Positions 8,078 through 37,841 of a stretch of 64,000 nt of DNA are shown piece by piece (the first letter of the stretch is position 1; each line of letters opens with the position of its first letter). Source of the stretch: Pseudomonadota bacterium (GTDB taxonomy: Bacteria > Myxococcota > JACRCW01 > JAFGSX01); the NCBI GenBank assembly GCA_043821645.1, contig JBDRCO010000003.1, forward strand, positions 32,001 through 96,000. Reading direction: 5' to 3'. The position numbers were made by a program, and so were the translations under genes. The notes under the pieces are model-generated. The model worked only from the letters and a program-made list of their open reading frames with translations, was not told where the DNA came from and ran no database searches.

Positions 8078-8534
8078 GAAGTTCCCCGTTAGCAGGAGCG
8101 GATGGTCTACGACACCTCCCGACGGTTCTGCCGGGCCGCCACAACATAGGGAAAGCTCCGGGTAAGTGTCAAGACCGGTGCTGGACCAGCGGGCAAAAGC
8201 AGGGTGCCGCGAGGTGACGCTAGAAGCCCCGGGCTGGTCAGCACGCTCAAAGTCTCGAATGTCGCAGAGAGCGGCAATCCCAAAAATTAATTTTACCGAA
8301 TCCACACATGCAGCGAAAAGTGCGACTTTGCTAGAGGCTACTTTAGAATCATCGACGTATGGCCAGGTAAAATAAAGTCTTTCATGAAAATTTCGGTTTG
8401 CCGATGGGATGAGCCAGAAAAGCAAAAAAGAGAAGAATCTCAAGCATCCGAATCAATGTTACATAATGTGTTATAAAATGAGCAGATAAGAGCAATAGTT
8501 AAACCTGAATCAAAGGTGTGCTTCAATCTGGATA

Positions 8535-8571
8535 CCACCACATATAGTTACTAGGCAACAATATATAGTAT
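8535..8571. promoter_or_regulatory. Tandem NrdR-box-like operators
   Basis: Cores CCACATATAG (8538-8547) and CAATATATAG (8559-8568) fit the NrdR core CwAtATaTwG and lie 21 bp apart. Confidence 0.6.
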
Positions 8572-8616
8572 CTCATCGAGTTTCTCCAAATGCCCGCCAT
8601 GTGTGCGTTTTTTCTA

Positions 8617-8646
8617 TTGACACTCGATCCCCTTCCTCACTAGATT
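8617..8646 (+). promoter_or_regulatory. Sigma-70-type promoter of the mraZ/dcw operon
   Basis: TTGACA (8617-8622), 18 bp spacer, TAGATT (8641-8646), about 75 bp upstream of the mraZ ATG. Confidence 0.7.
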
Positions 8647-8690
8647 GTGGATCGAAGTGGGGCGAAGTGGATCGTAGGCGATCGATGTGG
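8647..8690 (+). promoter_or_regulatory. MraZ-binding direct repeats
   Basis: GTGG at 8647, 8657, 8667 and 8687 (degenerate GGCG at 8677); exact 10-bp period. Confidence 0.85.
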
Positions 8691-8719
8691 ATCGCACACT
8701 CCCGAAAAGCGGATAGAAG

Positions 8720-9169
8720 ATGTTCCGAGGCTGGTTCGAGCATCTGCTGGACACCAAAGGGCGGGCGGCCATTCCCTCGACCTTCCGGGATAATCTTGCC
8801 CAGGCTGGAGACGAACGCCTGGTCATCACCACGGCCCTGTCTGGAGATCATCTCGTCGCCTATCCCCTGAGCAAGTGGCTGGCCTTCGAAGAGCGCGTCC
8901 GCTCGCAACTGCCCCAGTTTGACGCCAACGTTGAACGGTTTCGCAGGCTGTACATAGGCGGGGCCATGGAGTGCGGGTTCGACAAGCTGGGCCGCTTGGT
9001 GATCCCGGCCAACCTGCGCGAGGCCGCGGACCTGACCAAGGAGATCGTGTTTGTGGGCGACATCGAGAAGTTTGCGATCTGGTCCAAAGAGCGCTGGAGC
9101 GAGACCCAGCGGGTGGACCAGTCACAGCGCGACAGCATGCAAGATACACTTGCGAATCTTGGCCTATAG
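8720..9169 (+). CDS. mraZ: Transcriptional regulator MraZ
   Basis: Two SpoVT/AbrB repeats (LDTKGRAAIP, FDKLGRLVIP); first gene of the dcw cluster. Confidence 0.96.
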   Translation: MFRGWFEHLLDTKGRAAIPSTFRDNLAQAGDERLVITTALSGDHLVAYPLSKWLAFEERVRSQLPQFDANVERFRRLYIGGAMECGFDKLGRLVIPANLREAADLTKEIVFVGDIEKFAIWSKERWSETQRVDQSQRDSMQDTLANLGL

Positions 9170-20227: not shown

Positions 20228-21627
20228 CGCCGGTGTTCAGAGGCCGCGTGCGGCAGATCCACTTCGTGGGCATCGGTGGCATCGGCATGTCCGGCATCGC
20301 CGAGGTCCTGCTCAACCTCGGCTTCCAGGTCAGCGGCAGCGACCTGAGCCGCGGCGAGACCTGCGAGCGCCTGGCCCAGCTCGGTGCGACCATCTTCACA
20401 GGACACGACGCCGCCAACCTGGGCGAGGTCGACGTGGTGGTGACCTCGAGCGCGGTCCGGCCCACCAATCCCGAGGTGACCAGCGCGCACCAGCGTGGCA
20501 TTCCGGTCATTCCCCGTGCCGAAATGCTGGCCGAGCTGATGCGCCTGAAGCACGGTGTGGCCATTGCGGGCACGCATGGCAAGACCACCACCACCTCGCT
20601 GGTGGCGGCGATCCTGGGCCAGGCCGGCCTCGACCCCACCATCGTCATCGGTGGCAAGGTCAACGCCCTGGGCACCAATGCGCGGCTGGGGCAGGGCGAC
20701 TATCTGGTAGCCGAGGCGGATGAGTCCGACGGGAGCTTCTTGCACCTGTCCCCCACGGTCGCCGTCGTCACCAACATCGACCCCGAGCATCTGGATCACT
20801 GGACCGGCGGCTTGCCCGAGATCCTCGACGCCTTCACGGTCTTCGCCAACAAGGTGCCCTTCTTCGGGCTCGACGTGCTGTGCCTCGATCATCCGGGTGT
20901 GCAGGCCATCCTGCCACGCGTCACCCGTCGCCACGTCACCTACGGTCTGTCCCCCCAGGCCGACTATCGCGCCGAGAACATCCAGTTCGAGGGCCTCGGC
21001 ATGCGTTACACCGTGCTGCGGCGCGGTGAGGTGCTGGGGGAGATCCGGCTCAACATGGTCGGAGCGCACAACGTGCTCAACAGCCTCGCGGCCATCGCCG
21101 TGGCCGACGAGCTGGGCGCGCCCTTCGACGCCATGGCCCAGGGACTGGCGGGTTTCGGTGGTGTGGCCCGGCGCTTCTCCATCCTCGCCGATGACCGCGA
21201 CATCACCATCGTCGACGACTACGGTCACCATCCCGCCGAGATCCGGGCTGTCCTCGACGCTGCGCGCCGCGTGTACAGCGACCGGCACCTGCGCGTGCTG
21301 TTCCAGCCTCATCGCTACACCCGCACGCGCGACCTGATCGACGAGTTCGCCACCTGCTTCCACCTGGCCGAGAGCGTGGTGGTCACCGACATCTATGCAG
21401 CCAGCGAGGATGCGATCCCGGGCATCAGCGGCGAGAGCCTCGCCCGGGCCATTCGTGAGCGCGGCCATCGCGATGCCAGGTACTGCGCCTTCGACGCGCT
21501 GCTCGACGATACCGCGGCCCAGGTGCACGCCGGCGACGTGGTGTTCACCCTGGGTGCGGGCAACATCACCTCGATAGGTCCCAAGCTCGCGCGGCGGCTC
21601 AACCTGGCGGTGGCCCACCATGGCTAG
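20224..21627 (+). CDS. murC: UDP-MurNAc--L-Ala ligase
   Basis: [48 protein letters not shown]. Start 20224 or 20233. Confidence 0.97.
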
Positions 21628-22450
21628 GACCCGAAGTTCGGCTCGAGTGGTCACGCGTGGGCGGCGGCTCGGCCGCGCCCGGGTGCGCCTGCTCGGCCTG
21701 CTCGTCCTGGCCTCGGGGGGCGTGGGCGCGGGTTATCTCGGGGTGCAGGTGCGGCATGCCTTGCAGCGTGGCGAGCTGCTCGCCATCGAGACCATCCAGG
21801 TGGAGGGTGCCAGGCTGGTCAAGCGATCCGAGTTGCTGGGCTACGCTGGCGTCGACGTTGGCACGGGTCTCTACGCCTTCGATCTGGACCGCGCCACCCG
21901 TGCGATCCAGGAACACCCCCTGGTTGCCAGCGCGCGCCTGGTGCGCCGCCCACCCCACGAACTTCGCCTGTTCGTCGTCGAGCAGAAACCCGTCGCATAC
22001 GTGGCTCTCGAGCACCTGTATGCGATGAACAGCAGCGGGCAGTTGTTTGCCCGTGCCGAGGTTCTGGGTGGCCTGGACCTGCCTGTGATCGTCGGTGTCG
22101 ACGCGGCGAGCATGGATCGTGACGAGGTTCCTGCCCCCCTTCGTACCGCACTGCAGGTGCTGGCGGCCTGGGATCGGTCGGGCCTCAAGCGCTCCGAGCT
22201 GGCGACCCTGCGGGCAGATCCCGCGCTGGGTGTGGACCTTCAGCTGATGGGGCCACTGCGCCACGTACACCTGGGCGTGCAGCGCTTCGAGACCAAGCTG
22301 GGCCAGCTGGTGCGCCTGCGAGCCGAGCTGGACCGGCGCGGAGTGCAGGCGAGCGAGGTGTTCATGACCGACGGTCCGGACCCCCGCCGCGTGGTGGTTC
22401 GCAGTGCTGCGGTGCCGGTGGCAACGGGGACCGTCGAGAAACCGACCTGA
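21620..22450 (+). CDS. ftsQ: Cell division protein FtsQ/DivIB
   Basis: TM helix plus POTRA domain ([17 protein letters not shown]); directly upstream of ftsA. Confidence 0.88.
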
Positions 22451-22504
22451 AGAATGATCGTGACCTGGTGAGGACACGGCGCTGACAAGAAAGGCTGGTG
22501 TGAG

Positions 22505-23740
22505 ATGGCAAAAAAGGGCGGAGGGCTGGTGGTCGGGCTCGATATCGGCACGACCAAGATCTGCGCGATCGTCGGCGAGGTGGGGGATGACGGTGTCGAC
22601 ATCGTCGGTATCGGCACCTTCCCCTCCAAGGGCCTCAAGAAGGGCGTGGTCATCAACATCGAGTCCACGGTCAACTCCATCAAGAAGGCCATCGATGAGG
22701 CCGAGTTGATGGCCGGCTGCGAGATCTCCTCGGTGTACTGCGGCATTGCTGGCTCGCACATCCGTGGCTTCAACTCGCACGGCATCGTGGCCATCAAGGA
22801 CAAGGAAGTGCGCGATTCTGACATCTCGCGCGTCATCGACGCTGCCTGCGCCGTGGCCATCCCGCCGGACCGCGAGGTCATCCACATCCTGCCGCAGGAA
22901 TACATCATCGACGACCAGGACGGCATCCGCGAACCCCTGGGTATGTGCGGCGTGCGCCTCGAGGCCAAGGTGCACATCGTCACCGGCGCCGTGGCCAGCG
23001 CCCAGAACATCATCAAGTGCGCCCAGCGTTGCGGGCTCAATGTGTCCGACATCGTGCTCGAACAGCTCGCCTCGGCCGAGGCCGTGCTGGCCGAGGACGA
23101 GAAGGAACTCGGCGTCGCCCTCGTCGACATCGGCGGCGGCACCACCGACATCGCCATCTTCAGCAGCGGTAGCATCGTGCACACCGGTGTGCTGGCCATC
23201 GCCGGCAACCATCTGACCCACGACATCGCGGTGGGTCTGCGCACGCCGGCCGACGAGGCCGAGCGTCTGAAGCAGCGCTATGGCTGCGCCATGAGCAGCA
23301 TGGTCGACAAGGAAGAGACCATCGAGGTGCCCAGCATCGGCGCCCGGCCCTCGCGCATCATGGGTCGCCAGATCCTGTGCGAGATCATCGAGCCGCGGGT
23401 CGAGGAGATCTTCGAGCTGGTCAAGCGCGAGATCGAGAAGACCGGCTACGAGGACCTGCTGGCCTCGGGTGTGGTCATCACCGGTGGCTCGACCCTGCTG
23501 CCAGGCATCGTGGAGCTGGCCGAGGAGGTCATCGGCATGCCCGTGCGGCGAGGCATCCCCAAGGGCGTCGGCGGGCTGGTTGACGTCGTCAAGAGCCCCA
23601 TGTTCGCCACGGGTGTGGGCCTGGTGCAGTACGGCAGCAAGCACATGGACAGACGCTTCATCAAGGTCAGGCAGGACGATGAAGGCGTGTACACCAAGGT
23701 CATGTCGCGCATGAAGGATTGGCTGGGCGGAGCCAGCTGA
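22505..23740 (+). CDS. ftsA: Cell division protein FtsA
   Basis: [29 protein letters not shown]-terminal amphipathic helix. Confidence 0.98.
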
Positions 23741-23846
23741 GCTCGTCAAGACAACCTCTGGGGTCGGCATCGCAATCCCGCCAGCCGACCTCGACGGGGA
23801 TTCCCTCGAGGACACCAATCTGGCGGGCAACGACGTGGAGGACACG

Positions 23847-25028
23847 ATGCTGGAATTCGAGACCAACGGAATGGACACGCAGGCCAAGATCAAGGTCATC
23901 GGTGTGGGTGGCGGCGGTGGCAATGCCATCGAGACCATGATCACCAACCGCATGGCAGGGGTGGAGTTCGTCGCTGCCAACACGGATATCCAGGCCCTGG
24001 CCAAGAACAAGGCCCACATCAAGTTGCAGATCGGCGCCGAGCTCACCGCCGGCCTGGGTGCGGGTGCCAACCCCGAGGTGGGCCGGCAGGCCGCCCTCGA
24101 GGACCGCGAGCAGATCGAGGAACTGCTGCACGGCAGCGACATGGTCTTCGTCACGGCGGGCATGGGTGGTGGAACGGGCACCGGCGCCGCCCCGGTCATC
24201 GCCGAGATCGCACGCCATCTGGGGGCCCTGACCGTCGGCGTGGTGACCAAGCCCTTCTTCTTCGAGGGCAACCGTCGTCGTCGCCAGGCCGAGGAGGGTA
24301 TCGCCTCGCTCAAGCAGGCCGTGGATACCCTGATCACGATCCCCAACCAGCGGCTGCTGTCGATCACCGACCCGCAGACCACCATGCTCGACGCCTTCAA
24401 GAAGGCCGACGAGGTGCTGCTCAACGCAGTCCGCGGCATCAGCGACCTGATCACGGTCGATGGCCACATCAACGTCGACTTCGCCGACGTCCGCACCATC
24501 ATGCGCGAGCAGGGCATGGCGCTCATGGGGACAGGTCGTGCGGCCGGCGAGAAGCGCGCCATCGAGGCGGCGCACCAGGCCGTGTCGAGTCCCCTGCTCG
24601 AGGACGTGACCATCGACGGTGCCACCGGCATCCTCATCAACATCACCGGTGGCAGCAACCTGACCCTGCACGAGGTCAATGCTGCGGCGACCCTGATCCA
24701 GGAGGCCGCGCACGAAGACGCCAACATCATCTTCGGCTCCGTGATCAGCGAGAACATGCGCGACGAGGTGGTCATCACCGTCATCGCCACCGGCTTTGAC
24801 CGCAGCCCCACCCGGCGTGCCCAGAAGCCCGAGAGCAGCACCATCCCGACCGCATTGCGCGTCGAGGACCCGCGCGACATCCCGACCTACCTGCGCCGCA
24901 AGTGGGAGAAGACCAATCCCCCCATGCGCGTCGAGGAGAAGGGCCCCCTGGCCGTGCTGCCCGCGGTCGAGGACGACGAGTACGACATTCCGGCCTTCCT
25001 GCGCCGCTCGGCACAGAACGAGGGCTAG
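23847..25028 (+). CDS. ftsZ: Cell division protein FtsZ
   Basis: [16 protein letters not shown] tubulin signature, INVDFADV, C-terminal [16 protein letters not shown] before ATG 23847. Confidence 0.99.
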
Positions 25029-26067: not shown

Positions 26068-26265
26068 TCACCAGCCGACCGAACGTCGTGGTCGCCTGTG
26101 GGTCCAGGTTCTCCAGCTGACCCGCCCCTGGAAAACCTTTCGCCCGCCCGCGGCTGCTTGCCCGGCGGACCGCGCCTTGCGCCTGATCCAGGGTGCGGGA
26201 CCTTGGCCGGATCGTATAAGACATCTCCTGGCGATTGTTCACGCACAAGACCCCAGGACGTCACC

Positions 26266-28890
26266 ATGAGACTGCTGCGGCCCGGCCCCTTGCATCGCGT
26301 GCCTGTGCTGGTCGCGCTGGCAGGCCTGGGGCGCTGCACATGTGGGGACGCCGTCGTCGTCGAGGACGCGGCCGTGACCGATGGCTCCGCCTTGCAGGAC
26401 GCCGCAGGGACGGATGCTGGCCTGCAGGCCGACACCGCCCGCTTCGACGTGGCGCGCCGACCAGATGCGACCTCGGGCGACAGTGCACTGCCAGACGCCG
26501 CTCTTCCCCCGCCCAGCCTCGTCGTGCAACTGGATTCCGAGCTGTCCGACCGCGTGCGCGCACGCCTGATCGACCTGCTGCAGCAGGCGTCGCCACGCCC
26601 TCTGCGGGTGGTCGACGACCCAGGACCGTTCACCGGACAGGGAGACTGCTGGATCATCGCCATGGGCGACGTATGGGCTGTGCGCCAGCTGCTGCCGGCC
26701 GCGGAGGTCGCAGCCCTGGGTAGCGAGGGATTCGTACTGCGGTCAGGGGACATCAACGGCTGCGCTGCCCTCGTGGGCGACGGCAATGCGCTGCAGCCCG
26801 ATCCCTTTGGCCATGCACCGCTGGGCCTTGTCTACGCGGCCTATGCAGCGCTCGAGCTGCTGGGCTACGGTTTCCTGCATCCCCTGGCTCCGGTGACGCC
26901 GGAGAGCTTTGACCTGGGTGCGGTCCTCATCGACCGTACCGAGGCACCGCACTGGCCTGTGCGTGGCTTGCAGATCCACACCATGCATCCCCTCGAGCTG
27001 ACGGATCTGCTGCAGGGCTTCGGGATCACCGGGCCCGACGACGCCCTGGGCTTCGAGGCCATGCTCCCCGAGTGGGAGAGGGTGGCCGAGTGGCTGGTGG
27101 CCAATCGCCAGAACCGGGTGCACTGGCCCCTGCTCGAGGCGACGCCCTGGCAGGACTTCTCTCGTGGGCCGATTCGCCAGCAGCGCCTGGCGACCTTGGT
27201 CGAGCTGGCCCAGGACTACGGTGTGGCGGTGGGTGCAGACGCGCCTGTGGCCCTGCAGCAGCAGCACACCTTCCGCCTGCTGCGCTCGAGCGGCAGCCTC
27301 GACGACGAGAAGGCCGAGATCCGCAGCAGCCTCGACTGGCTCATGGGCGCGGGCTTTGACTACCTGGCCACCGAGAATGGCTCGACCGAGTTCACCCACC
27401 CGGATCCGGATCGCATGCTGGCCTGGCTCGACGAGGTGGCGCGCTACCTCGATGAACAGTACGGCAAGCCCGCTGTGATCAAGGTGCACTGCTCGCAGGG
27501 TCAGGTGGCGGACGGCTATCTCGACCAGGATACCGGTGAGCCCCTCAACTTCAACTTCCTGCCGGCGTACGCGGATCCTCGCCTGGGCGTGGCACCGCAC
27601 AGCGTGCAGATCTACGGCCTCGACGACCCAGCGCCCACTTATGGCAACACCGACTTCGGTTACATGCGGACCTTCATGCAGCAGCAGGCCGGTCGCCGCA
27701 CCGTGCTGTGGCATCCGGAGACCGCCTACTGGGTCAGCTACGACGTGGACGTGCCGCTCTTCCTGCCGGTCTACGCGTATCGCCGTGTGCACGACCTGCG
27801 CCTCATTGCGGACGACGAGGCGCAGGGTCGCACCGGACGCGGCGAGCACGCGGGCGCCCACATCGACGGACAGCTCACCTTCAGCAGTGGCTGGGAGTGG
27901 GGGAACTGGCTCAACGACGTCGTCACGGCGCGGGCCGCCTGGGATCCGCACACCGCGGCTACCGACGATGCAACGGCCCTGCACGAGATCCTGGGCGAGG
28001 TGCTGGCACCCTTTGGTGAGGCGCGGGGCGATCTGGCCTCGGTGCTTGTCGACACGGCCACGACGCAGCACGCGCTCCTGGTGCTCGGGCGCGTGCAGGG
28101 CCAGGACCCGGTGGCCATCGAGCGACGCAGTGGCATGGCGTACCTGCAGGGTTTCGATGCCTGGGACGACGTCATGGACCTTGGACAAGGCCTGCCCCTG
28201 GTGGGTCACATCACGACCCAGCCCGACAAGCTGGGCCTGGTCGAGATGCGCAATCCGCTCCATGCACCGCCTTCCTACAGCAATGAGCTGAAGCCCCTGT
28301 TCGAGGAGATGCAGCGCACCCTGAGCGAACTTGCGGACCGCTATGTGCCTTTGATCCCGCTCGCCGCGGCCCCGAGCATCGAACTGATCGAGGACCTGGG
28401 CGATGCTTCGCGCATCACGGCGCTGCGGGCGACCCAGATCGAGAACTTGTACGCCTTCGTGGCCGACGACCCCAATCCCCTGCGCCAGGCCGAGGCCGCT
28501 GCCTCCCTCGAACGCGCACGCGCGGCCCTCGACGCTGCGCAGGCGCTGGTCGCGGCGCGGGAACCCCACTACAGGGTGCATGCCGACCGCGCGGCCGGCT
28601 GGTACCCCGGCCCAACCGCCTACGCCTACCGCTACCTGTGGACCGTGCGCACGCTTCTGTACTGGTGGCGTGATGAGCACAAGGCGGTGAATGCACCGAC
28701 CAACCCCTGCACCCTCAACATCGTCAACCCGGCGACCGTGGGCCTGGGCGAGGGCGTCTATGCCGATGCTGCGCGCCTGGCGCAGGATCTCGTCGACAGC
28801 GTGCCGCTGGTCGGCAGTCTGTCCGAGTGCCTCGCCGAGCCTGGCACGGAGCCTGTGATGCCTCCCGCTGGCTTGCGCGACACTCCCTGA
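26266..28890 (+). CDS. Large secreted or lipid-anchored hypothetical protein, possibly glycoside-hydrolase-like
   Basis: Signal-like N-terminus with Cys, Asp/Ala-rich linker, SEGFVLRS..AAYAALELLG..P.WPVRG pattern reminiscent of GH20/GH67 N-terminal domains; strong host codon bias. Confidence 0.6.
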   Translation: MRLLRPGPLHRVPVLVALAGLGRCTCGDAVVVEDAAVTDGSALQDAAGTDAGLQADTARFDVARRPDATSGDSALPDAALPPPSLVVQLDSELSDRVRARLIDLLQQASPRPLRVVDDPGPFTGQGDCWIIAMGDVWAVRQLLPAAEVAALGSEGFVLRSGDINGCAALVGDGNALQPDPFGHAPLGLVYAAYAALELLGYGFLHPLAPVTPESFDLGAVLIDRTEAPHWPVRGLQIHTMHPLELTDLLQGFGITGPDDALGFEAMLPEWERVAEWLVANRQNRVHWPLLEATPWQDFSRGPIRQQRLATLVELAQDYGVAVGADAPVALQQQHTFRLLRSSGSLDDEKAEIRSSLDWLMGAGFDYLATENGSTEFTHPDPDRMLAWLDEVARYLDEQYGKPAVIKVHCSQGQVADGYLDQDTGEPLNFNFLPAYADPRLGVAPHSVQIYGLDDPAPTYGNTDFGYMRTFMQQQAGRRTVLWHPETAYWVSYDVDVPLFLPVYAYRRVHDLRLIADDEAQGRTGRGEHAGAHIDGQLTFSSGWEWGNWLNDVVTARAAWDPHTAATDDATALHEILGEVLAPFGEARGDLASVLVDTATTQHALLVLGRVQGQDPVAIERRSGMAYLQGFDAWDDVMDLGQGLPLVGHITTQPDKLGLVEMRNPLHAPPSYSNELKPLFEEMQRTLSELADRYVPLIPLAAAPSIELIEDLGDASRITALRATQIENLYAFVADDPNPLRQAEAAASLERARAALDAAQALVAAREPHYRVHADRAAGWYPGPTAYAYRYLWTVRTLLYWWRDEHKAVNAPTNPCTLNIVNPATVGLGEGVYADAARLAQDLVDSVPLVGSLSECLAEPGTEPVMPPAGLRDTP

Positions 28891-28916: not shown

Positions 28917-29140
28917 GGGTGAAACGTGCTGGGTGAAACGTGCCTGGGCACATTTCCAAGGGCGCTGGAACGCGGAGACCGACCTGTCCACGCTGGACGA
29001 CGGCGGGGAGACCACAGCGGGTTCACCAGGGCAAGGTCCGGCTGGCCCCTGCCCGGGTGAAACGTGCCACCAACCTTCCCCTGCCGGGTGAAACGTGCCA
29101 CCAACCTTCCCCTGCGGTGAAACGTGCCACCAACCTTCCC
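28917..29140 (+). repeat. Left cluster of REP-like motifs
   Basis: GGGTGAAACGTGC twice (28917, 28931; the second extends into the hairpin GAAACGTGCC-TG-GGCACATTTC), then three tandem GGTGAAACGTGCCACCAACCTTCCC at 29056, 29087 and 29116. Confidence 0.9.
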
Positions 29141-29234
29141 TGACTCTTTGGCGCTTTTTGCATCAGACTGTTTCAAATTGCGGCAGGTTTGCCCGGATGC
29201 GGCGAAAAATTACCTTATTATCCCATGATGCGGC

Positions 29235-29250
29235 TGGCCCATCGCTTGCT
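29235..29250 (+). promoter_or_regulatory. Sigma-54 (-24/-12) promoter-like element
   Basis: TGGCCC-ATCGC-TTGCT has the canonical GG-N10-GC spacing and ends 12 bp before ATG 29263. Confidence 0.6.
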
Positions 29251-29262
29251 TCATGCGTGCCC

Positions 29263-30177
29263 ATGGGCCGTGCAATCCGCATCATCGAGCCCCAGCGGCT
29301 TTATTTCGTGACCAACCGAACCCAGCAGGGTCGGCTCCTTCTCGCCCCCTCGCGCGAGGTGAACGATCTCATTGGTGGTGTCCTGGGCCGCGCACTATCG
29401 CTCTTTGAAGTCGAAATCTTCGCCTTTGTTTTCATGTCCAATCACTTTCACCTGATCGTTCGCGCAAACGAAGGGCAGCTCTCACCCTTCATGTCTCACC
29501 TGCAGGGAAACATCGCACGCGAGCTTGGGCGCCTCATTCACTGGAGAGGCGCATTCTGGGAGCGCCGCTACTCGGCCGAACCCATTCTTGACGACGAGTC
29601 CTATGAATCACGGCTGGCCTACCTGCTCTCGCATGGGGTGAAAGAGGGGCTTGTCGAGAAGGCCCGACAATGGCCAGGCCTCAGTTGCCTGCCCGAGCTC
29701 ACCGGCAGCTCTCCCAGGAGTTTTCCGTGGATACATCGAGCGGAGCTATGTCGTCGTCGCGAGAAGAAACCGGAGCTGTGCGAGCGTTCTTGCACGACGC
29801 TCTACCCTGTACCGCTATCCGTCGCCCCCGCATGGGCAAGGATGAGCCAGGACCTTCGTTGCGAACGAGTGAAGTCGCTGGTTCGCGACGGCGAGAAGAA
29901 GGCAAGCGAGCAACGCGCGGGTCGTGCTGTGCTCGGAGTGAAGCATCTGCGAAGGCAGCGCCCTCATCACCGGCCCCGGCAAGTAAAACGCTCCCGGCGC
30001 CCACTCTGCCATGCGGCGACACGCAGTGCTCGTCAGGAATACAGGCAACTCTACCTGCGTACAGTCGCCGTGTATCGTGACTGCTCCCATCGCTTTCGTT
30101 CAGGTGAGTTCGGTATCGAGTTCCCAAAGTACTGTTACAGGCCACCCTTGCATTACAGCAGCGAGAGACCGACTTGA
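29263..30177 (+). mobile_element. HUH/Y1 single-strand nuclease-transposase (RAYT/TnpA-REP-like, IS200 superfamily)
   Basis: YFVTNRT, MSNHFHLI (HUH), FWERRY, LAYLLSHGVKEGLV (catalytic Tyr region), WPGLS; no tnpB nearby; flanked by inverted REP-like motifs. Confidence 0.9.
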
Positions 30178-30418
30178 CCGACACCTTTCTTCTGCCAGGG
30201 TACACCGATAGTTCAGCTTGTCTTTCCTGACAATTTATTCCTGCAATCGCCGCGCGTCTGGGTCGATTGCCAACCTCCGCATCCCATAAAATGCAGCACA
30301 TATTTGTCCGTTGCGCAAACAAGGAGGGGAAGTGGCACTTCGTTGGAAAATGCATCAGCAGGATGGGATAGGTGGCTGATGGAGTAAAGCGGCTGGGGTA
30401 GGTGGCTGGCACCTTTCC
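30175..30418 (-). repeat. REP-like motifs downstream of the nuclease, inverted relative to the left cluster
   Basis: TGACCGACACCTTTC (30175-30189, overlaps the stop), GGGGAAGTGGCACTTC (30326-30341), GGGATAGGTGGCTG (30365-30378), GGGGTAGGTGGCTGGCACCTTTCC (30395-30418). Confidence 0.8.
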
Positions 30419-30432
30419 TGGGGCTCTCGACG

Positions 30433-31284
30433 TCATCGGTCCCCGGCAACGACCGCTCCGGCGTCAGCTTGGACAGCGCCGACATGTGACATTTGACGAG
30501 TCCTGACCGCATTCTCTTCTGACACGCAATGAAAGGAAAGTTCACTAAGAGTATTTTCTAGGTTAAAGTTGCTTCCAGTTTCCTTGGACAGCTCCTGCAA
30601 TACTCTGTTGGCTTCGTGCTTCACTTTACTCATAATTTCAGGATTGGATGTATCCTTATTTGTCAAGTTCGCCAATGCAAATAGAATTGCCAATTCTTCA
30701 TGTGTAATCTCCTGCAAGTCGTGCGCGAAGTAGACTCGACCAGCCATGCGCAGGCCGACCACCCCACGACCGTAGTAAGAATTATCAAGATAAATTTCGA
30801 TTAGCTCATCCTCTGTGAATCTGTTACTAAGTTGAATTGCAAGTATTCGAGCCTTTAGATGTCGATTTATGCTCTCAGGAGGTACGAATAGCAGTGAGAC
30901 TAGGTCGACGAAATATAACTCATTAAAATGATATTCTTCAAAAAAAATACTTGGCACTACTGGCAAAGACAAAGCTGCAACTGAAACGGAACATTGTTCC
31001 TTTCGAAACATTGCTCTCTGGGCAACATGAAATTCTCCGATGATCATTTTTGGAAGAGAGTCCTTTGTAGGGTATCTTGAACTCAATACTGGGCACTGCT
31101 TTATTGCGGAGTTTGATGAGTTGAATACTCGGACGGTTTCTGGCTTGGTGGCGACAATTTCTACCAGTGGTAGACCCCTGGCCTCCCTGCTTATACGATG
31201 GGTTACTAGAGCACAAACACCGAGCATCAGTGCACATAGGAAGCCAGAAGTGTATACTGCTGTTCTCTTCGAATAGATTCCCAT
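30433..31284 (-). CDS. Membrane-anchored degenerate GT51 transglycosylase-domain protein; putative Rhs immunity protein
   Basis: N-terminal TM helix. RHLKARILAIQL..FTEDELIEIYLDNSYYGRGVVG..AGRVYF resembles GT51 motifs 3-5, but motifs 1 and 2 are lost. Low GC; ATG abuts the Rhs stop codon. Confidence 0.75.
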   Translation of the reverse strand: MGIYSKRTAVYTSGFLCALMLGVCALVTHRISREARGLPLVEIVATKPETVRVFNSSNSAIKQCPVLSSRYPTKDSLPKMIIGEFHVAQRAMFRKEQCSVSVAALSLPVVPSIFFEEYHFNELYFVDLVSLLFVPPESINRHLKARILAIQLSNRFTEDELIEIYLDNSYYGRGVVGLRMAGRVYFAHDLQEITHEELAILFALANLTNKDTSNPEIMSKVKHEANRVLQELSKETGSNFNLENTLSELSFHCVSEENAVRTRQMSHVGAVQADAGAVVAGDR

Positions 31285-33804
31285 TTACCTAACGTACCCG
31301 ATTCGCTTCGGCCAGCCCACGTCATTGATGTTTGTAGTTATTATTGTTATCGGCAACTGAGGTGTTGGAGGTGTAGTGCTGTCGTCATATGTGATCGGGG
31401 ATGATGGATCGAACATCTCGATCCAACCGCAACCTGCCGATGCTCCAACCACCCACTCCTTATAGGCAGTTCCCCAGCCGAGCATATCCCAAAAGAGTTC
31501 TTCATCCTTGTGAGAAAATCCACAGGCGCCATCGGCTGTGTGGCTATGAATTACAGAAATGTATCCTGGCTGTTGTCTTCCCGGTTCAACGTCGTCGGGA
31601 GTACCTGGAATAGGGGGCCACGTGAAAGTGTATCCTCCTCCTGAAGCGACAGTAACCCAGACTGCGTACTCGATTGTCCCATTTTCTGAATGGAGGAGCT
31701 TTGCCGCTGTGATGGCAGCGTCATTATCAGTAAGATACTTCGCAGCCCAGCGGGGTAGTTCTCTGCTTGATCTGCATCCTGAGAGCGCCGAAAGTGCGAT
31801 CGATATTGATATTGCAATTGACGCCTCTGTCAAATTCGCGAACTCGCCTGAGGGATCGGCCCTGCGAATAGGGTCGCCATCAGCGTATGTGTACTTATTT
31901 AATGTGCTAGTAGCTGAGATGTAACCGATGTGTTTGTCTCGACTATCGAACCGGCCGTTCATTGGGTTATAGTACCTCGCCCTAAAGTAGTAGTCGCCAA
32001 GTTCCTCGTCAATCTGCTCCCCCGCATATCGATATAGGTTTTCGCTCGTCCCCGAACTACTCAGCTTCGATCCAAACGCCTCATAGGTGTAAGTGTCAGT
32101 GACCGCCCCCACGTCGTCGGAGAGTGCCCTAGTCGAGAGTTGTCCGTCGACGAGATAGAAAGAGCCCGCACCAGACCGCTCAATACTCACCAAGTCATTC
32201 GCATGCACATAGCTGGCGAGAGTCGAGCCAAGCCAATCACTCTCGACGAGCACCTGGCCATACTGCCTGTTCTTGTCGACGAGAAAACCCGTCACGTCGG
32301 AGGCATTGACGACCTTCTTGGTCCTCAACCCACCATCATCGTACTCGAACAAAACTGCATTGCTTCCGTCGTCAAACGAGACGAGTCTGTTCTCCGCCGT
32401 CCACCCATACACCTTCGAAACAACCGGCCCCACCTCCCCAGTCGTGTTGCCGTTGTCGTCGTAAGAGTAAGTGTAAACCCCATCCGGCCGCGTCTCAGTA
32501 ATCAACCTGTCATTGGCATCGTAGGTGTACGAAGTGACACCTTCGACTGTGTCACTCTTGAGCAGCCTGTTGCCAAAGGCGTCATAAGTGCAAGCAATAT
32601 TGCGGTCGCCGTTGACGGGAACGACGATGGCTTCCTCGGTGAGTCGGTACAAGTCGTCGTATGCGTAGTGAACGCTTCGCCCGTTGTGAACCTCAAAAAC
32701 ATCCGTCCTGTTACCCGTCAGCCCGAGCAAATACTGGTAACTCGCAACCAGACTCCCGTCGCCACGCCGGTGCTCGATGAGCGTCAACCTGCCGAGCTGG
32801 TCATAGCTGTTCGTCGTCACGATGCCGTTGGGCAAGGCCGCCGTGCGCTGCTGCCCCGTCGCCAGATAGGTGTAACTCGTCACCTGCCCGTCAGGGTCCG
32901 TGACCGTGGCGATGCGGTTCAAAGCATCAAAGCTGTAGGCGGTAGTTCCACCAGCGTGAGCCACAGAGGCTCGGTTGCCTCTGCTGTCATATGAGTAACT
33001 CAGCCAAGACCCGTCAGGATTCGTCACCCGCGTCAGCCTGTCGCGATTATCGTAATCGTGATCAGTCGCTCCGCGGTGGTCCGTGACGACGTCCATTTGC
33101 CCCGTCGCCGTGTACGAAAAACTGACCTGCTGCCCGTTACCTATATCCTTGGCCGCGCGCCTGTTGTTGATATCGTAGCTTTTTACAATCATCTCTCCGT
33201 TGAATGTGGTCTGCTGGGTGACGTTGCCGCTGGGGTCGTAGGCAAACGACTCGTACTGACCGAGCGGCAGGCAGTGCTCGACCACACGACCGAGGTCGTC
33301 GTGCTTCCAGGTCGTGACGTGACCGTTGGGGTCCGTCTGTGAGATCTTGTTCCCCACCTTGTCATAACCATAGCGCGTCTGCCCGCCCAGCGCATCATCC
33401 ACGCCGGTCAGACGACCCAGGGCGTCATACAGGTAACCTGTCACGACCCCGGCCTGGTCCGTCTTCGCGACCAGGCGGCCGAGGGCGTCGTAGCCGTTCA
33501 GCATCACCGTGCCGTCGGCGAACAGGGTGCGGGTGTTGCGGCCCAGCTCAACGTAGTCGAGCTGCGTGGCGACACCCAGAGCGTCCGTCACGCTGGTGCG
33601 GTGGCCCCTGGCATCGAAGCCGAACTGGGTCAGGTTGCCCAGGGCATCGACCACGGCCACGCGCCGGCCCAGCTCGTCGTACTCGTATGCGGTGCGGTGG
33701 CCATTCTCGTCGACGCTGGCCACGGTGCGGCCGGCCGGGTCATACTCGGTGGAGGTGCTGCTGCCGTCGGCGTAGGTGGTCCGGACCAGGCGGTTCAAGG
33801 CGTA
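31285..33804 (-). pseudogene. 5'-truncated Rhs/YD-repeat toxin with JAB/JAMM (DUF4329-like) C-terminal domain
   Basis: Many YD repeats (YDELGR, YDALGR, YDNRDR), core RYAGEQ..YYFRARYY..GRF..D, DPSG cleavage motif, C-terminal domain with E..HSH-x8-SxxD. Begins mid-repeat at a REP-like motif with no credible native start. Confidence 0.88.
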
Positions 33805-33848
33805 GGGGGTAGGTGGTTGGCACCTGACAAGGGGCACCTGACAAGGGG
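33805..33848 (-). repeat. REP-like motif with adjacent 14-bp tandem duplication
   Basis: GGGGGTAGGTGGTTGGCAC (33805-33823); GGCACCTGACAAGG occurs at 33819 and 33833. Confidence 0.85.
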
Positions 33849-33873
33849 AATTCGAGGAAAACGCGAGAGTAGT

Positions 33874-34311
33874 TCAACCTAGGACCATACTCTTCCAAGT
33901 ATCATCCATATTCTTCACACCGAGTTTCACAGTTTGTAGCCACTCCCTTGAACCAATGGGAATGACCATATCTCTAACATAAGCTCCGGTGATGCTTCTG
34001 CTATTTTTGCCGATAGATTTCATCTTCTCAACGTGCTTCAAATTGATTTGAAGCTCCGTCACCATTGCAGGCAATGCCCCTTTCTCGACACCCCATAGCG
34101 CAAGATTCTCGTGGCCATGCTCAGCAACATCAGAAAGAAATACATCTAGAAAATGTACATTGGCTTCCAACAAGGCCAGGCGCTGTATGTCGTCTTCTGC
34201 ATTTTCTAAGACAGCTTTGCCGAGTTGATAAGAGGCGACTTTCTTCGGGAGGTGATCGCCAAGAAGCATCGTGTAGACTTCGCCAATTGCTTGGGTTGTA
34301 TCGTCACGCAT
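33874..34311 (-). CDS. Low-GC hypothetical protein (145 aa), possible orphan immunity or cargo gene
   Basis: AAGGA RBS 8 nt before the ATG; AT-rich codon usage; boxed by inverted REP-like motifs. Confidence 0.65.
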   Translation of the reverse strand: MRDDTTQAIGEVYTMLLGDHLPKKVASYQLGKAVLENAEDDIQRLALLEANVHFLDVFLSDVAEHGHENLALWGVEKGALPAMVTELQINLKHVEKMKSIGKNSRSITGAYVRDMVIPIGSREWLQTVKLGVKNMDDTWKSMVLG

Positions 34312-34489
34312 AGATAATTTCCTTCAATGGCTTCCTTGGGTTATGTAGAGACAAGCCGAGCAGAATCAAAGAACAGGCTAAACCAGAACCTGTTCGTGAA
34401 CCTCTGCCTTCTTTGACATCTCCCATGTTCTTTCGCTCTCTGACCTGGTTTCGTGTGTCAGCTCTGATTGTCAGCCGCCCACTAAAAAA

Positions 34490-34630
34490 GTGCCAGCAAC
34501 CTACCCCCAGGCACCCGGCACTAGCAGCACTAGCACTAGGTGCCAGCAACCTACCCCCAGCGCACCTGGCACTAGCAGCACTAGCACTGCACTAGCAGTG
34601 CTGCACTAGAAGTGCCAGCAACCTACCCCC
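34490..34630 (+). repeat. Three identical REP-like motifs separated by GCACTAG-iteration spacers
   Basis: GTGCCAGCAACCTACCCCC at 34490, 34540 and 34612. Confidence 0.92.
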
Positions 34631-35083
34631 GGCGGTATCCCCCTGCGCCTGTTCAAGCTGGATCGCGCCTACGGCGAGCCGGCCCCGCTGTGCGCCGCCT
34701 GCCAGCGCATCGCGCGGGTGGCGCGCGAGCAGCTGCCGCTGTTCTACGACCGCGGCCACGCGCAGGGCCTGATCGCGATGCTCGAGCAGCGCACCGAGCA
34801 GCTGGCCGGCCTGATCGCCAGCCGCGACCGGGTGTCCGTGCGTTCGGCCAGTGGCCAGGCCCGGCGCGCCGCGCTCAAGCGCCTGCTGCTGGACGCGCTG
34901 ATGTACCTGGGGCCCTGGGGCCGCGACGTCACCGCCGGCGATGCCATGCGCCGCGAGCGCTACGCCCTGGACAAGCTGTTCCCCGCCGGCAGAGCGCGCA
35001 AGGGCAATGGATCCAGCGCTGCCGTCGACGACGAGGCGCTGGACGCCGCGGCCGCCGACCGCGCCCTGGGCCTGCCGGGCTGA
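34631..35083 (+). pseudogene. 5'-truncated high-GC gene fragment
   Basis: Strongly GC3-biased frame (GGIPLRLFKLDRAYGEPAPLCAACQRI...LGLPG*) starts directly after the motif; in-frame TAG at 34607 and no start codon until GTG 34718. Confidence 0.6.
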
Positions 35084-35331
35084 GCGCGCGCCGTCGCTGG
35101 CGCCGCCGCAGCACCGATCACCACGGTCCCCGGGACGCTCTGGGCCACACCCTGGGGTCGGGACCGAGCCACCCTGCTGCCGTCGACGGCGCGCCCCGGA
35201 ACGCCCCCCGACGCCCCCCGGATGCCACCCGACCTACCCCGGACGCCACCCGGCGCGGCCAGGACCGCCCACGGCACGCGCTGCCGACGCCACCGCCACG
35301 CGATGGAACGATTTCGTCTGATCCGGTTGTC

Positions 35332-35347
35332 AACGCACTGCGTTATT
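35332..35347. promoter_or_regulatory. Palindromic operator candidate AACGCACTGCGTT(ATT)
   Basis: 13-bp palindrome about 100 bp upstream of the beta-oxidation operon; recurs at 58845-58866. Confidence 0.55.
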
Positions 35348-35444
35348 GGCATCATGTCGCCGCGAAACGGGCAGGCGAGGCCACCGGGCCCACCGGCCAG
35401 CCAAAACAACACCGCTCCCGCGGGCGGACAGCGAGGAGGACCGA

Positions 35445-37841
35445 ATGGCTGACAGAATCGACAAGGTCGCGATCCTGGGCGCGGGGGTCATGGGGCAGGG
35501 CATCGCCGCACACCTGGCCAACGCCGGTGTGCGCAGCATCCTGCTCGACATCGTGCCCCCCAAGTTCGGTGACGACGACAAGGCCGCAGGCCTGAACGAG
35601 AAGGACCGCGCCTTCCGCAACAAGTTCGCCATCAAGGGCAAGGAGGCCGCGCTCAAGGCCAAGCCGGCGCTGTTCTACACCAACGTCGACGCGGACCTGG
35701 TCGAGGTCGGCAACCTCGAGGACGACCTCGGGGTCATCGGCGAGTGCCAGTGGGTGGTCGAGGCCGTCATCGAGCGGCTGGACATCAAGCAGCAGCTGTT
35801 CGAGAAGGTCGAGAAGCACTGGAAGCCCGGCTGCATCATCACCAGCAACACCTCGGGCCTGAAGATCAAGGACATGCTCAAGGGCCGCGGCGAGGGCTTC
35901 TGCTCACACTTCCTGGTGACGCACTTCTTCAACCCCGTGCGCTACATGCCCCTGCTCGAGATCGTCGTCGGCGACAAGACCGACAAGGCCGTGCTCGAGC
36001 GCATGGTCGAGTTCGGCCGCAACGCCCTGGGCAAGGGCATCGTGTTCGGCAAGGACACCCCCAACTTCGTCGGCAACCGCATCGGCGTGTACGCCATGTT
36101 CGAGACCGTCAAGCAGGTGCTCGAGGGCGGCTACACCGTCGAGGAGGTCGACGCCATCTTCGGGCCCGCCACGCTCAAGCCCAAGAGCGGCATCTTCCGC
36201 CTGGCCGACATGGTGGGCATCGACACCCTGGTGCACGTCGCCAACAACAGCTACGACAACCTGCCCGAGGACGAGAAGCGCGACACCTTCAAGGTCCCCG
36301 ACTTCATCAAGACCATGGTCGAGCGGGGCATGATTGGCCAGAAGGCCAAGCAGGGCTTTTTTAAGAAGGTGGGCAAGGACATCCAGACCCTGGATCTGAA
36401 GACCCTGGAGTACCGCGACAAGCAAAAGGCCAAGTTCGACTGCATCGGTGCCAGCAAGAGCATCGAGGACCCGGCGAAGAAGCTGCGCACCGTGATGTTC
36501 GGCGAGGACCGCGGCGCCAAGCTGGCCTGGAACGTGACCAAGGAAGTGCTGATCTACTCGGCCAACCGCGTGGGCGAGATCGCCGACGACGTGGTCAACA
36601 TCGACGCGGCCATGCGCTGGGGCTTCAACTGGGAGGCCGGTCCCTTCGAGATGTGGGACATGCTCGGCGTCGAGGAGACCGTGGCCCGCATGAAGAAGGA
36701 AGGGCTCAAGGTCCCGGCCTGGGTCGAGGACATGCTCAAGGCCGGCCACCCGAGCTTCTACAAGCACGACAAGGGCGACGTCTTTTACTACGACGTCAAG
36801 ACCAAGAAGACCGTGCCCCTGGACGAGGGCGAGAAGGTCATGCGGCTGCAGAACCTCAAGGAGGGCGGGCGCGTCCTGGACAAGAACGGCAGCGCCAACC
36901 TGGTCGACCTGGGCGACGGCGTGTACTGCGTCGAGTTCGACTGCAAGATGAACGCGGTCGACGCCGACCTGGTGGCCATGATCCACAAGGGCCTGGACCG
37001 CGCCGAGGCCGAGGGCTGCGCCCTGGTGCTGGCCAACGACGACAAGCAGGCCTTCTCGGCCGGCGCCAACCTGATGCTGGTGTTCATGGCCGCCCAGAAC
37101 AAGCAGTGGGACGAGCTGCGCAAGGTGATCGTCGACTTCCAGGCGGTCAACAAGCGCATGCGCTACAGCCCGGTGCCCGTGGTGGCGGCGCCGCACCAGC
37201 TGGCCCTGGGCGGCGGCTGCGAGATGACCATGTGGACGGATCACGTGCGCGCGCACGCCGAGCTTTACATGGGCCTGGTCGAGGTGGGCGTGGGCCTGCT
37301 GCCGGCCGGCGGCGGTACCACCGAGATGGTGGCGCGCTCGCTCATGGGCATCCCCGACGACCCGGGCTTTGCCCCCGAGATGGCGCTCAAGCGCGGCCTC
37401 GAGGCGGTGGCCATGGCCAAGGTGTCGATGAGCGCCGAGATGGCCAAGGAGCTGATGCTGCTCAGGCCCGGCGACGGCTACACGGTCAACCGCGACCACG
37501 TGCTGTACTCGGCCAAGCAGGCGGCCCTGGGTCTGGCCCGTGCCGGCTACCGTCCGCCCCGTCCGCGCTCGTTCCGGCTGCCGGGCCCGAGCGGCTATGC
37601 CACCTTCAAAGCCGTGCTCAGCGCCATGCGCGATGGCCACTTCATGAGCGATCACGACCTGAAGGTCGGACTCAAGATCGCCGAGATCTTCACCGGCGGT
37701 GATACCAGCATGCGCGTCAAGGTCACCGAGGATAGATTGCTGGAGATGGAGCAGGAGGCCTTCTTGAGCCTGTGCGGCGAGCAGCTCACGCTGGATCGGA
37801 TCCAGTACATGCTCATGAACAACAAGCCCTTGCGAAATTGA
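35445..37841 (+). CDS. 3-hydroxyacyl-CoA dehydrogenase / enoyl-CoA hydratase (FadN-type)
   Basis: GAGVMGQGIA, EAVIE, SNTSG, HFFNPVRY, C-terminal crotonase domain (FSAGANL, ALGGGCE, GLVEVGVGLLP); GAGGAG RBS. Confidence 0.95.
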   Translation: MADRIDKVAILGAGVMGQGIAAHLANAGVRSILLDIVPPKFGDDDKAAGLNEKDRAFRNKFAIKGKEAALKAKPALFYTNVDADLVEVGNLEDDLGVIGECQWVVEAVIERLDIKQQLFEKVEKHWKPGCIITSNTSGLKIKDMLKGRGEGFCSHFLVTHFFNPVRYMPLLEIVVGDKTDKAVLERMVEFGRNALGKGIVFGKDTPNFVGNRIGVYAMFETVKQVLEGGYTVEEVDAIFGPATLKPKSGIFRLADMVGIDTLVHVANNSYDNLPEDEKRDTFKVPDFIKTMVERGMIGQKAKQGFFKKVGKDIQTLDLKTLEYRDKQKAKFDCIGASKSIEDPAKKLRTVMFGEDRGAKLAWNVTKEVLIYSANRVGEIADDVVNIDAAMRWGFNWEAGPFEMWDMLGVEETVARMKKEGLKVPAWVEDMLKAGHPSFYKHDKGDVFYYDVKTKKTVPLDEGEKVMRLQNLKEGGRVLDKNGSANLVDLGDGVYCVEFDCKMNAVDADLVAMIHKGLDRAEAEGCALVLANDDKQAFSAGANLMLVFMAAQNKQWDELRKVIVDFQAVNKRMRYSPVPVVAAPHQLALGGGCEMTMWTDHVRAHAELYMGLVEVGVGLLPAGGGTTEMVARSLMGIPDDPGFAPEMALKRGLEAVAMAKVSMSAEMAKELMLLRPGDGYTVNRDHVLYSAKQAALGLARAGYRPPRPRSFRLPGPSGYATFKAVLSAMRDGHFMSDHDLKVGLKIAEIFTGGDTSMRVKVTEDRLLEMEQEAFLSLCGEQLTLDRIQYMLMNNKPLRN

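Follow-up and report, generated by a model that had tools for sequence, protein, structure and literature searches.

Analysis of a 64,000-nucleotide (nt) stretch of a Pseudomonadota bacterium genome (assembly GCA_043821645.1, contig JBDRCO010000003.1, positions 32,001 to 96,000; the whole stretch is called the window below) revealed, between 28917 and 35241, an intact gene for a Y1/HUH tyrosine transposase-like protein, which stands among short repeats ending in a run of C residues (the C-run) and beside pieces of truncated genes. We lean towards interpreting it as a locus of the REPtron/TIRtron kind, in which breakage driven by the Y1 enzyme 3' of the C-run would have given polar deletions into a decaying Rhs islet. 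The evidence comprises the family of the gene, the layout of the repeats, three junctions at one position of the repeat and polymorphism between samples. The host assembly (genome G000) amounts to 7.07 Mb in 140 contigs, with a completeness of 94.7% and an estimated contamination of 3.95%; C-numbers such as C5, C63 and C112 denote its contigs, and X1 to X6 denote other runs or environmental samples. The features of the locus are as follows:

28917-28957, plus strand: two partial repeat units GGGTGAAACGTGC (5' flank and first motif bases), then GTGCC-T-GGGCAC, from sequence reading and repeat-family search.
29051-29143, plus strand: left array of three tandem units CCGGGTGAAAC-GTGCCACCAACCTTCCCC, spaced 31 and 29 nt, with the C-run toward the transposase gene.
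29263-30177, plus strand: Y1/HUH tyrosine transposase-like gene of 304 amino acids (aa), with H61-F62-H63, Y120 and a conserved C-terminal half containing Cys and His.
30326-30376, minus strand: two degenerate copies, 30326-30338 (with an internal gap) and 30365-30376 (3' two-thirds), from direct reading, too short and degenerate for statistics.
30377-30393, plus strand: stump of an IS110-like element, 17 nt of its left end, which meets the copy at 30395 at the C-run end, from similarity search.
30395-30423, minus strand: right inverted copy (30395-30412) with its 5' flank CCCCAGGAAAG to 30423.
30433-31284, minus strand: gene of a 283-aa membrane-anchored protein with half a GT51 transglycosylase domain, GC content about 40-47% (Pfam Transgly, E 1.6e-15, profile 77-177 of 178).
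31285-33804, minus strand: 5'-truncated Rhs gene with YD repeats, Rhs-associated core and a C-terminal tip of about 186 aa of unknown family.
33805-33848, minus strand: repeat copy 33805-33823, C-run abutting the Rhs fragment, plus a 14-nt tandem stutter of the 5' flank (33821-33848).
33874-34311, minus strand: 145-aa open reading frame (ORF), 46% GC, without relatives (an ORFan), which may or may not be a gene.
34490-34630, plus strand: right array of three copies (34490, 34540 and 34612), the third followed by a truncated gene.
34631-35083, plus strand: K fragment, 75% GC, from a gene whose unnamed family has members of about 300-365 aa and of which it keeps the 3' third to half.
35223-35241, plus strand: possible degenerate copy GATGCCACCCGACCTACCCC, unconfirmed and absent from the three-mismatch search.

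The preliminary description of this DNA had named the enzyme as a HUH nuclease of the RAYT kind, and this identification held. The protein matched Pfam Y1_Tnp (PF01797) with E 5.9e-7 and 30.1 bits against a cut-off of 23, and NCBIfam REP_Tyr_transpos (NF047646) with 70.3 bits, which is under the equivalog cut-off of 80. Its best solved relative was E. coli TnpA-REP (4er8, E 0.048), with HFH aligned over HMH, FWE over FWE and the Tyr in register. H61, H63, Y120, K127-E128 and W137-P138-G139 were invariant in 17 of 17 aligned family members, among which the C-terminal half also holds several invariant residues, including a Cys-His pair and an F-P pair. The Y motif reads Y120-L-L-S-H-G here and Y-L-L-S-N-G or Y-V-L-A-H-G in the paralogues, in general Y-x3-[HN]-G. 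Residues 141-304 matched no Pfam family at E up to 1, and no helix-turn-helix (HTH) domain (Bac_DnaA_C, HTH_23, HTH_28) was found there. The genome contains three full-length paralogues, diverged and not like copies of an insertion sequence (IS); of the other two, the one on C63 has 68% identity and the one on C128 has 53%. C32 carries a distant Y1 gene in addition. Homologues at E<=1e-20 were present in 57 of the 201 genomes sampled from the phylum, often as several diverged copies each. Judged from these alignments, the gene encodes an intact, RAYT/TIRYT-like and domesticated-looking Y1 HUH protein.

The repeat was searched in the window as GTGCCASCMACCTWCCCC with up to three mismatches and with 100 shuffles as control, which yielded 10 matches against 0.54 expected (shuffle maximum 3, n=100). 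Eight of these carry at most one mismatch and span 29064-34629, six on the plus strand (29064, 29095, 29124, 34490, 34540 and 34612) and two on the minus strand (30395 and 33806); the other two, at 3955 and 24649, have three mismatches each and are chance-like. Across the whole assembly the matches with 0-1 mismatch are the same eight only, and a genome-wide REP (repetitive extragenic palindrome) family was rejected because the 18-mer is confined to the locus. The partial copies first reported at 28917-28957, 30326 and 30365 were recognized again, whereas those at 30175 and 35223 were not recovered at up to three mismatches and are unconfirmed. The repeat unit, of about 30 nt, consists of a 5' flank, GTGCC and then A-SC-MACCT-WCCCC; every copy is preceded by a C-rich/G-rich/AAA flank, and the flank with the first four to six motif bases is often partly duplicated in tandem (stutters, for example 28917-28944 and 33821-33848), as it also is at C63, C67 and C82 and in genome G045. 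A shared 34-nt sequence follows the copies at 34490 and 34540, and the next tandem unit follows those at 29064 and 29095, so that similarity ends at one position in all copies.

The repeats had been called REP-like, with a short hairpin in two copies, and this part of the preliminary description was not supported. The copies at 30395 and 33805 do contain the word AGGTG-N5-CACCT, but it folds no better than shuffles (z -0.61 and -0.08). Six repeat stretches gave z values of -0.03 to -1.0 against shuffled sequence, and the z of -2.36 of a seventh is due to an unrelated upstream stem. Palindromes of the form GGTGCC..GGCACC number 18 against 20 and 19 in controls. With no excess in folding or in palindrome counts, the REP hairpin reading of the repeats was rejected. 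Only the 10-mer GAAAGGTGCC is enriched in the genome (34 occurrences against 3 for the reversed control), and part of its copies lie at the ends of other elements on C54, C82, C105 and C112. C54, C77, C82 and C112 contain sequences of the form CCCC-N-GGAAAGGTGCCACCC(G/A)A.T..TCA (for example C112:5492-5517, C54:253-270 and C82:5773-5805), which look like ends of a further element family with a common GGTGCCA start. Scans of public collections with the exact motif returned 109 metagenome and 97 genome stretches, with one match each and from unrelated taxa where named; roughly 140 matches are expected by chance in the genome collection, and the scans are at chance level.

The gene is bracketed by inverted copies, 29064-29141 on the plus strand and 30395-30412 on the minus strand, with further copies in the next few kilobases, and its closest paralogue is arranged in the same way. 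The order on C63 is stutters, two copies GGAAATGGTGCCACCAACCT, the Y1 gene, an inverted copy, a LIP-family lipoprotein gene and, 1.9 kb on, two more direct copies; the LIP-family gene is complete and of native GC, and the gene beyond the direct copies also looks complete by reading frame and N-terminus. An nhmmer model built from 13 seed copies (8 at the locus and 5 at C63) gave 14 matches in the genome at E<0.1, namely 8 at the locus, 5 at C63 and 1 on C112, the first 13 being the seeds; about 8 looser matches were located on C12, C54, C60, C67 and C82. In an automatic inverted-repeat screen of 57 homologous loci, counted from its output, a flanking inverted repeat with GTGCC was found at at least 18, and other loci had different cognate words. 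These counts are lower bounds, since the screen missed the window locus itself; it failed at 19 of the 57 loci including that one, flanks were too short at 2 more, and the GC-rich "motifs" that it gave at loci L313 and L314 are probably chance. Genomes of one genus have 31, 42 and 78 copies of the cognate 15-mer, whereas the control word has 0-1, the 15-mer variants cluster around the matching paralogue, and the gene is at the same place in two species. At locus L294, a region of 6.6 kb around the gene holds six copies, which occupy the spaces left by long ORFs, and at L294, L059 and L061 the extra copies lie in intergenic gaps, in DNA of uniform GC. The shared layout of the C63 paralogue and of many homologous loci supports taking the motif as the cognate repeat of the Y1 gene, and the locus as an arrangement of the known REPtron/TIRtron type by its sequence organization. 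Between repeat and start codon, the window (29142-29262) and C63 (73120-73232) contain similar words, CAAATTGCGGCAGG and GCAATTTGCGACAGGG; the latter occurs repeated, and a role as operator or promoter element is possible for this word, which both Y1 paralogues have upstream.

Three unrelated sequences are cut at the same position of the motif. Two of these cuts had been reported before, and both were borne out. The Rhs-like sequence starts midway through a YD repeat, at 33804 and directly against the C-run at 33805, and it matches the RHS_core profile only from position 480 of 1261. The K fragment begins at 34631, 0-3 nt past the C-run of the third copy of the right array, and 6 of 7 full-length homologues start to align at window position 34634; the N-terminal part of the K family was absent from the 94.7%-complete assembly with 7 of 7 full-length queries. 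The third junction, of the same type, is that of the IS110-like stump. Window positions 30370-30393 match the left end and flank of this element (ends on C5, C66 and C67) in 23 of 24 nt (E 0.002); the element breaks off one base away from the C-run of the copy at 30395, and the opposite side of the stump is bordered by a further repeat copy, of which the 3' two-thirds are present. Beyond the stump come the remainder of the repeat copy and the transposase gene's own 3' flank, that is, local DNA, and for this reason we read the three junctions as polar deletions. The stump thus records two events, insertion of an IS110-like element into the centre of a repeat copy and subsequent loss of nearly all of it, with one endpoint at the C-run.

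The IS110-like element is a multi-copy element with DEDD_Tnp_IS110 and Transposase_20 domains, and it breaks the assembly. Its left ends were found at C5:54720-54976, C66:1-187 and C67:1-254, its right ends at C122:1-1100 and C109:10400-11185, and truncated copies at C67:1495-1830 and C82:5510-5790. Since its ends adjoin AGGTGCC (left, three ends) or GGCACCT (right, one end) half-sites, the element seems to be inserted centrally in the same half-site family as is found at the head of the Y1 repeats, much as known IS110 elements that target REPs are; REP-type repeats as targets of the IS110 family are described in the available parts of PMC1525189 and of IS110/bridge-RNA papers. A mosaic region on C82 (3600-8100, locus L065) contains several half-sites as well as stutters; in one instance two partial copies come after GGTGCCAGCCACCTATTCCAC. 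The region also has a fragment of an IS110 transposase that is truncated on each side, along with incomplete domains (SecY profile 1-226 of 306), and no Y1 gene lies within 12 kb of it.

Comparison of the locus across samples was possible with contigs from other runs, which record presence only, so that missing contig cover is no evidence of absence. In every block, pieces from X2 and X3 are identical to the window, for which they may be the source. An X4 contig of 402 nt (33765-34166, 0 differences) bridges the junction between Rhs, repeat and ORFan with 40 letters on the Rhs side, and an X1 contig of 2967 nt (34384-37350, 1 difference) bridges the right array, the K fragment and the fadB-like gene beyond. 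Because these contigs cross 33804/33805 and 34630/34631, neither junction is an assembly artefact. The arrays are dynamic and polymorphic between samples. An X1 contig leading from the preceding gene to the transposase gene passes straight from 28931 to 29116, which takes 184 nt off the left array in X1 and leaves one full copy there; the difference is bounded by direct repeats of GGTGAAACGTGC. A further X1 contig matching 29795-30387 runs on with letters that could not be placed on the stretch, and an X4 contig matching 30343-30423 continues with 139 unplaced letters, diverging exactly at the outer edge of the repeat flank. X1 has no depth over 30812-32014, where absent contig cover is uninformative, and X4 to X6 show small shares of cover. 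The tandem copy number of the left array in the window is uncovered by the contigs listed from other runs, and it could therefore be an assembly estimate.

The blocks between the repeats are best read as a small, horizontally acquired and decaying Rhs polymorphic-toxin module, comprising the C-terminal half of an Rhs gene with its tip, a coupled gene and an ORFan; the Y1 locus would lie next to this low-GC islet or within it. The Rhs ORF extends over 31285-33837 on the minus strand, its first 11 codons being repeat sequence; it matched RHS_repeat with E 1.2e-66, and the Rhs_assc_core (TIGR03696) at residues 585-664 of 850 is followed by the 186-aa tip, for which the sole match was a sub-threshold one to Prok-JAB (E 0.015). 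The other Rhs genes of the genome are 23-32% identical at best, and with at most about 30% identity the fragment is without a recombination partner. The ATG of the 283-aa gene follows directly after the Rhs TAA. In the Atlas, 30 of the 30 nearest clusters of this protein are short Transgly-domain proteins of 234-261 aa (score 0.96), and its position alone makes it a candidate immunity or partner gene. The 145-aa ORF has no Pfam or NCBIfam match, matches only itself among 5.8 billion proteins and gave uninformative Atlas scores of 0.90 or less. The K fragment corresponds to the last ~150 residues of proteins of 303-365 aa whose family is multi-copy in two genomes of the class; neither the fragment nor three full-length homologues belong to a Pfam family, and the fragment is probably a pseudogene, since there is no in-frame start before 34718. 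No usable name for the ORFan, the K family or the Rhs tip came from Pfam, NCBIfam, Atlas or the search of 5.8 billion proteins. The copies had also been described as borders between blocks of different GC, for which values of 40-53%, 46% and 75% were obtained. This stood for 33805 and 34490-34630, where GC shifts coincide with copies, but the one near 30395 is displaced by about 90 nt to the right, and the 69-to-40% gradient is inside the Rhs gene. In the Rhs fragment GC falls from 0.69 to about 0.50, the usual core-to-tip gradient, and the next gene is at about 0.40.

From these observations we infer the Y1 enzyme to be the agent of breakage, with its cleavage site marked by the C-run, and the events to have been deletions. 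The enzyme would nick single-stranded DNA immediately 3' of the C-run of a repeat, and the freed 3'-OH would be ligated to a second, poorly specified nick further along. The outcome would be polar deletions from the end of the repeat into adjoining DNA, and the Rhs gene, the K gene of 75% GC and the IS110-like insertion would each have been truncated by such a deletion, while tandem arrays and stutters could come from the same chemistry or from slippage. In the available portion of PMC3479197, E. coli TnpA-REP cuts single-stranded DNA at a mere CT dinucleotide, on either flank of the REP and at a distance, and transfers strands as a monomer; such dinucleotide-specific cleavage and strand transfer make a breakage-deletion interpretation plausible.

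Several points weigh against this interpretation. As a cleavage site the C-run is a prediction, and the bases that meet vary among the eight junctions, four having C|T, three C|A and one C|G. The repeats fold no better than shuffles, whereas characterised Y1 enzymes recognise hairpins. The IS110-like recombinase also acts on the repeat family and could contribute to the rearrangements. The step from 30424 into the Rhs partner gene is the sole junction unbridged among the contigs listed, and X4 differs there. No empty site or close relative by which to order the events was present among the genomes compared, and the flanking genes are only 32-60% identical and not syntenic in the nearest genomes. 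Finally, pure deletion gives no explanation for the small low-GC ORFs that lie between repeats in genome G045 as they do here. At L055 (G045:C5) and L056 (G045:C4), which are paralogous loci of this distant genome, a segment of about 450 nt and low GC lies between cognate repeat copies, some 400-900 nt upstream of the Y1 gene, with an ORF of 107 or 117 aa without a Pfam family and with stutters as at the window locus.

Among the alternatives, the IS110-like recombinase and plain recombination between repeats are live ones. The Y1 gene could be a bystander, with the junctions produced by insertion or faulty excision of the IS110-like element, by homologous recombination or by slippage, next to an Rhs gene that was already an orphan; we consider this doubtful, though the least so of the other explanations. 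The position of the element beside AGGTGCC/GGCACCT half-sites (three left ends and one right), the stump that it left in the locus and the published use of REP-type repeats as IS110-family targets (PMC1525189, as far as its available part goes) agree with it, as do the 184-nt difference of X1 bounded by direct GGTGAAACGTGC, which slippage or homologous recombination would give, and the C82 mosaic of truncated genes and half-sites. However, the ends of the element abut the repeat centre (after GGTGCC) and not the C-run of the three junctions, and from homologous recombination between copies one would expect hybrid copies, not the end of a copy joined to the interior of a coding sequence. That three independent breaks share one nucleotide position speaks for a site-specific nick.

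The preliminary description favoured gene capture. This explanation treats the repeat, as far as its C-run, as an attachment site, the 3'-OH of which is joined by strand transfer to foreign or distant single-stranded DNA, giving cassettes that are each headed by a repeat. We hold it to be unlikely, and slightly more so than the bystander explanation. All three truncated sequences lie 3' of a motif, and the two genes among them read away from it on the motif strand; GC differs strongly between blocks; small relative-less low-GC ORFs stand between copies beside the Y1 gene here and at the two G045 loci; C63 has a complete lipase-family gene between the inverted and two direct copies; the X4 contig has other sequence right past the repeat at 30423; and, in the available part of PMC3479197, TnpA-REP can in principle join any 3'-OH to the covalent intermediate. 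The DNA joined at the third junction is nevertheless local, the N-terminal part that the K fragment lacks occurs nowhere in the assembly, the GC gradient within Rhs marks no cassette boundary, and a cargo survey of 16 other family loci (14 from other genomes plus C63 and C128) found kilobase-scale low-GC cargo at none of them; only the two G045 loci had a 500-nt window 0.13-0.18 below the locus mean GC. The extra copies at L294, L059 and L061 are intergenic in DNA of uniform GC, the C63 neighbours are complete genes of native GC, the blocks of the window are of mixed orientation with no evident promoter or expression logic and a K fragment lacking a start codon before 34718, and the public matches of the exact motif are single and chance-level. 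The G045 ORFs echo the ORFan block of the window and keep the capture explanation alive, if thinly. In its broadest form, a long Y1 clade that splices single-stranded DNA behind a repeat attachment site and so builds an array of ORFans, toxin-immunity fragments and whole genes, as the HUH counterpart of an integron, this proposal is still less probable. Rhs orphans usually look like this, a 5'-truncated Rhs gene to which a further gene is tightly coupled, and no new capture system is needed to account for it.

Misassembly or misbinning, by which low-GC blocks were wrongly joined at short repeats, is very improbable: the 140 contigs with 3.95% estimated contamination, the 31-nt tandem units that equal the word length of many assemblers and the unbridged step at 30424 would allow it, but contigs from other runs bridge the passages from gene A to the transposase gene (X1), from Rhs to the ORFan (X4) and from the array through K to fadB (X1), and the X2/X3 pieces are identical to the window across all blocks.

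The surroundings of the locus are core chromosome. The stretch from 12.4 to 25.0 kb holds murE/murF/mraY/murC, ftsQ, ftsA and ftsZ, that from 35.4 to 39.2 kb holds fadB-like and thiolase genes, and the locus is downstream of the dcw/ftsZ cluster. GC in the window is mostly 0.63-0.72, and the drop to 0.49-0.61 is confined to 29-35 kb apart from a lesser dip at 8-9 kb; there, 8001-9000 has 0.53 against 0.64-0.70 around it, and no long ORF of high third-position GC occurs between 3.3 and 12.4 kb. No transfer RNA gene was found within 15-50 kb and no Rfam family within 27.5-36.5 kb. Gene A (26098-28890) encodes a 930-aa protein without a Pfam or NCBIfam family, with homologues of 32-33% identity in two genomes of the class. 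An antisense ORF at 21599-24880 overlaps ftsA/ftsZ and was rejected as spurious. The closest genomes (G001-G003) show only 32% (gene A) and 56-60% (fadB-like) protein identity and no synteny; as the two genes are on separate contigs there, no insertion boundary can be defined.

Among RAYT/TIRYT enzymes, cleavage sites are known for one E. coli enzyme only, and footprints in vivo are rare. The locus yields a testable prediction for a widespread long clade, namely a nick immediately 3' of the C-run of a non-hairpin repeat of about 30 nt, whose footprint would consist of the three truncated neighbours, the tandem stutters and the differences between environmental samples, and it also shows an IS110-like element landing in the same repeat family. 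If deletion is the correct explanation, "domesticated" transposases would be local agents of genome erosion; if capture is, a new route of gene acquisition would operate in an uncultivated lineage, seen as structural polymorphism between populations. What survives of the preliminary interpretation as a whole is the enzyme, its cognate repeat and the joining of unrelated sequences at one motif position, whereas the REP hairpins and the capture array are not supported.

Four known systems and one class of toxin module were compared with the locus. Integrons (IntI, attI, attC) resemble it in that short repeats part gene-sized blocks, some with relative-less ORFs, beside a recombinase gene. They differ in the class of enzyme; the locus has no attC-like folded site, common orientation or promoter, its blocks include gene fragments, and the pattern does not recur at the 16 other family loci. 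An Rhs orphan toxin-immunity module consists of a 5'-truncated rhs that retains some of the core and has a divergent tip of low GC, with a tightly coupled gene downstream. The core part, variable tip and abutting downstream gene are all present here, but no full-length rhs with a matching core lies upstream or in the genome, and the truncation point is fused to a transposase-associated repeat. IS200/IS605 elements (IS608, ISDra2) share Y1 HUH chemistry on single-stranded DNA, cleave at fixed positions from their ends and reseal the donor on excision. Their enzymes are of about 150 aa with Y-x3-Q, against 304 aa with Y-x3-H-G here; their copies are near-identical, against paralogues of 53-68% identity; and their subterminal hairpins, direct ends and frequent tnpB have no counterpart at the locus.

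A REPtron is said, after Nunvar in 2010, Messing in 2012 (PMC3479197) and Bertels and Rainey, to be a RAYT/TnpA-REP gene flanked by REP repeats or bacterial interspersed mosaic elements (BIMEs), as in the E. coli yafM type. The locus is like it in its Y1 HUH protein, which aligns with 4er8 at HUH and Tyr and of which each genome has few and diverged copies (53-68% identity), and in the short repeat of its own that flanks the gene in inverted orientation, with nearby repeats clustered and alternating in orientation. It differs in that its repeats are non-palindromic and lack a GTAG foot, number about 14-20 copies against hundreds in REPtrons, and accompany a protein twice as long, with a conserved C-terminal half and a score under the NCBIfam equivalog cut-off; its Y-x3-[HN]-G also differs from the Y-x3-N-P of class 2 in the part of PMC6006769 available. 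With TIRtrons/TIRYT and TnpAY1 subclass 2.1, as described in the available parts of PMC3733652 (Di Nocera, 2013) and PMC6006769 (Quentin, 2018), respectively, it has in common a RAYT-like gene with non-hairpin inverted repeats about 100-250 nt away, moderately abundant repeat families occurring as dimers or clusters, and a long protein with an NH[YF]H HuH and a W-E motif. The inner ends here are GGGGTAGG or GGGGAAGG and not the terminal inverted repeat (TIR) consensus GGGGWSAS given in those parts, the C-terminal half has no HTH, and the Y motif is different; the same portions of the two papers make no mention of truncated genes at repeat ends. Taken together, these comparisons suggest that the locus behaves as described for REPtrons and stands closer to TIRtrons/TIRYT and TnpAY1 subclass 2.1.

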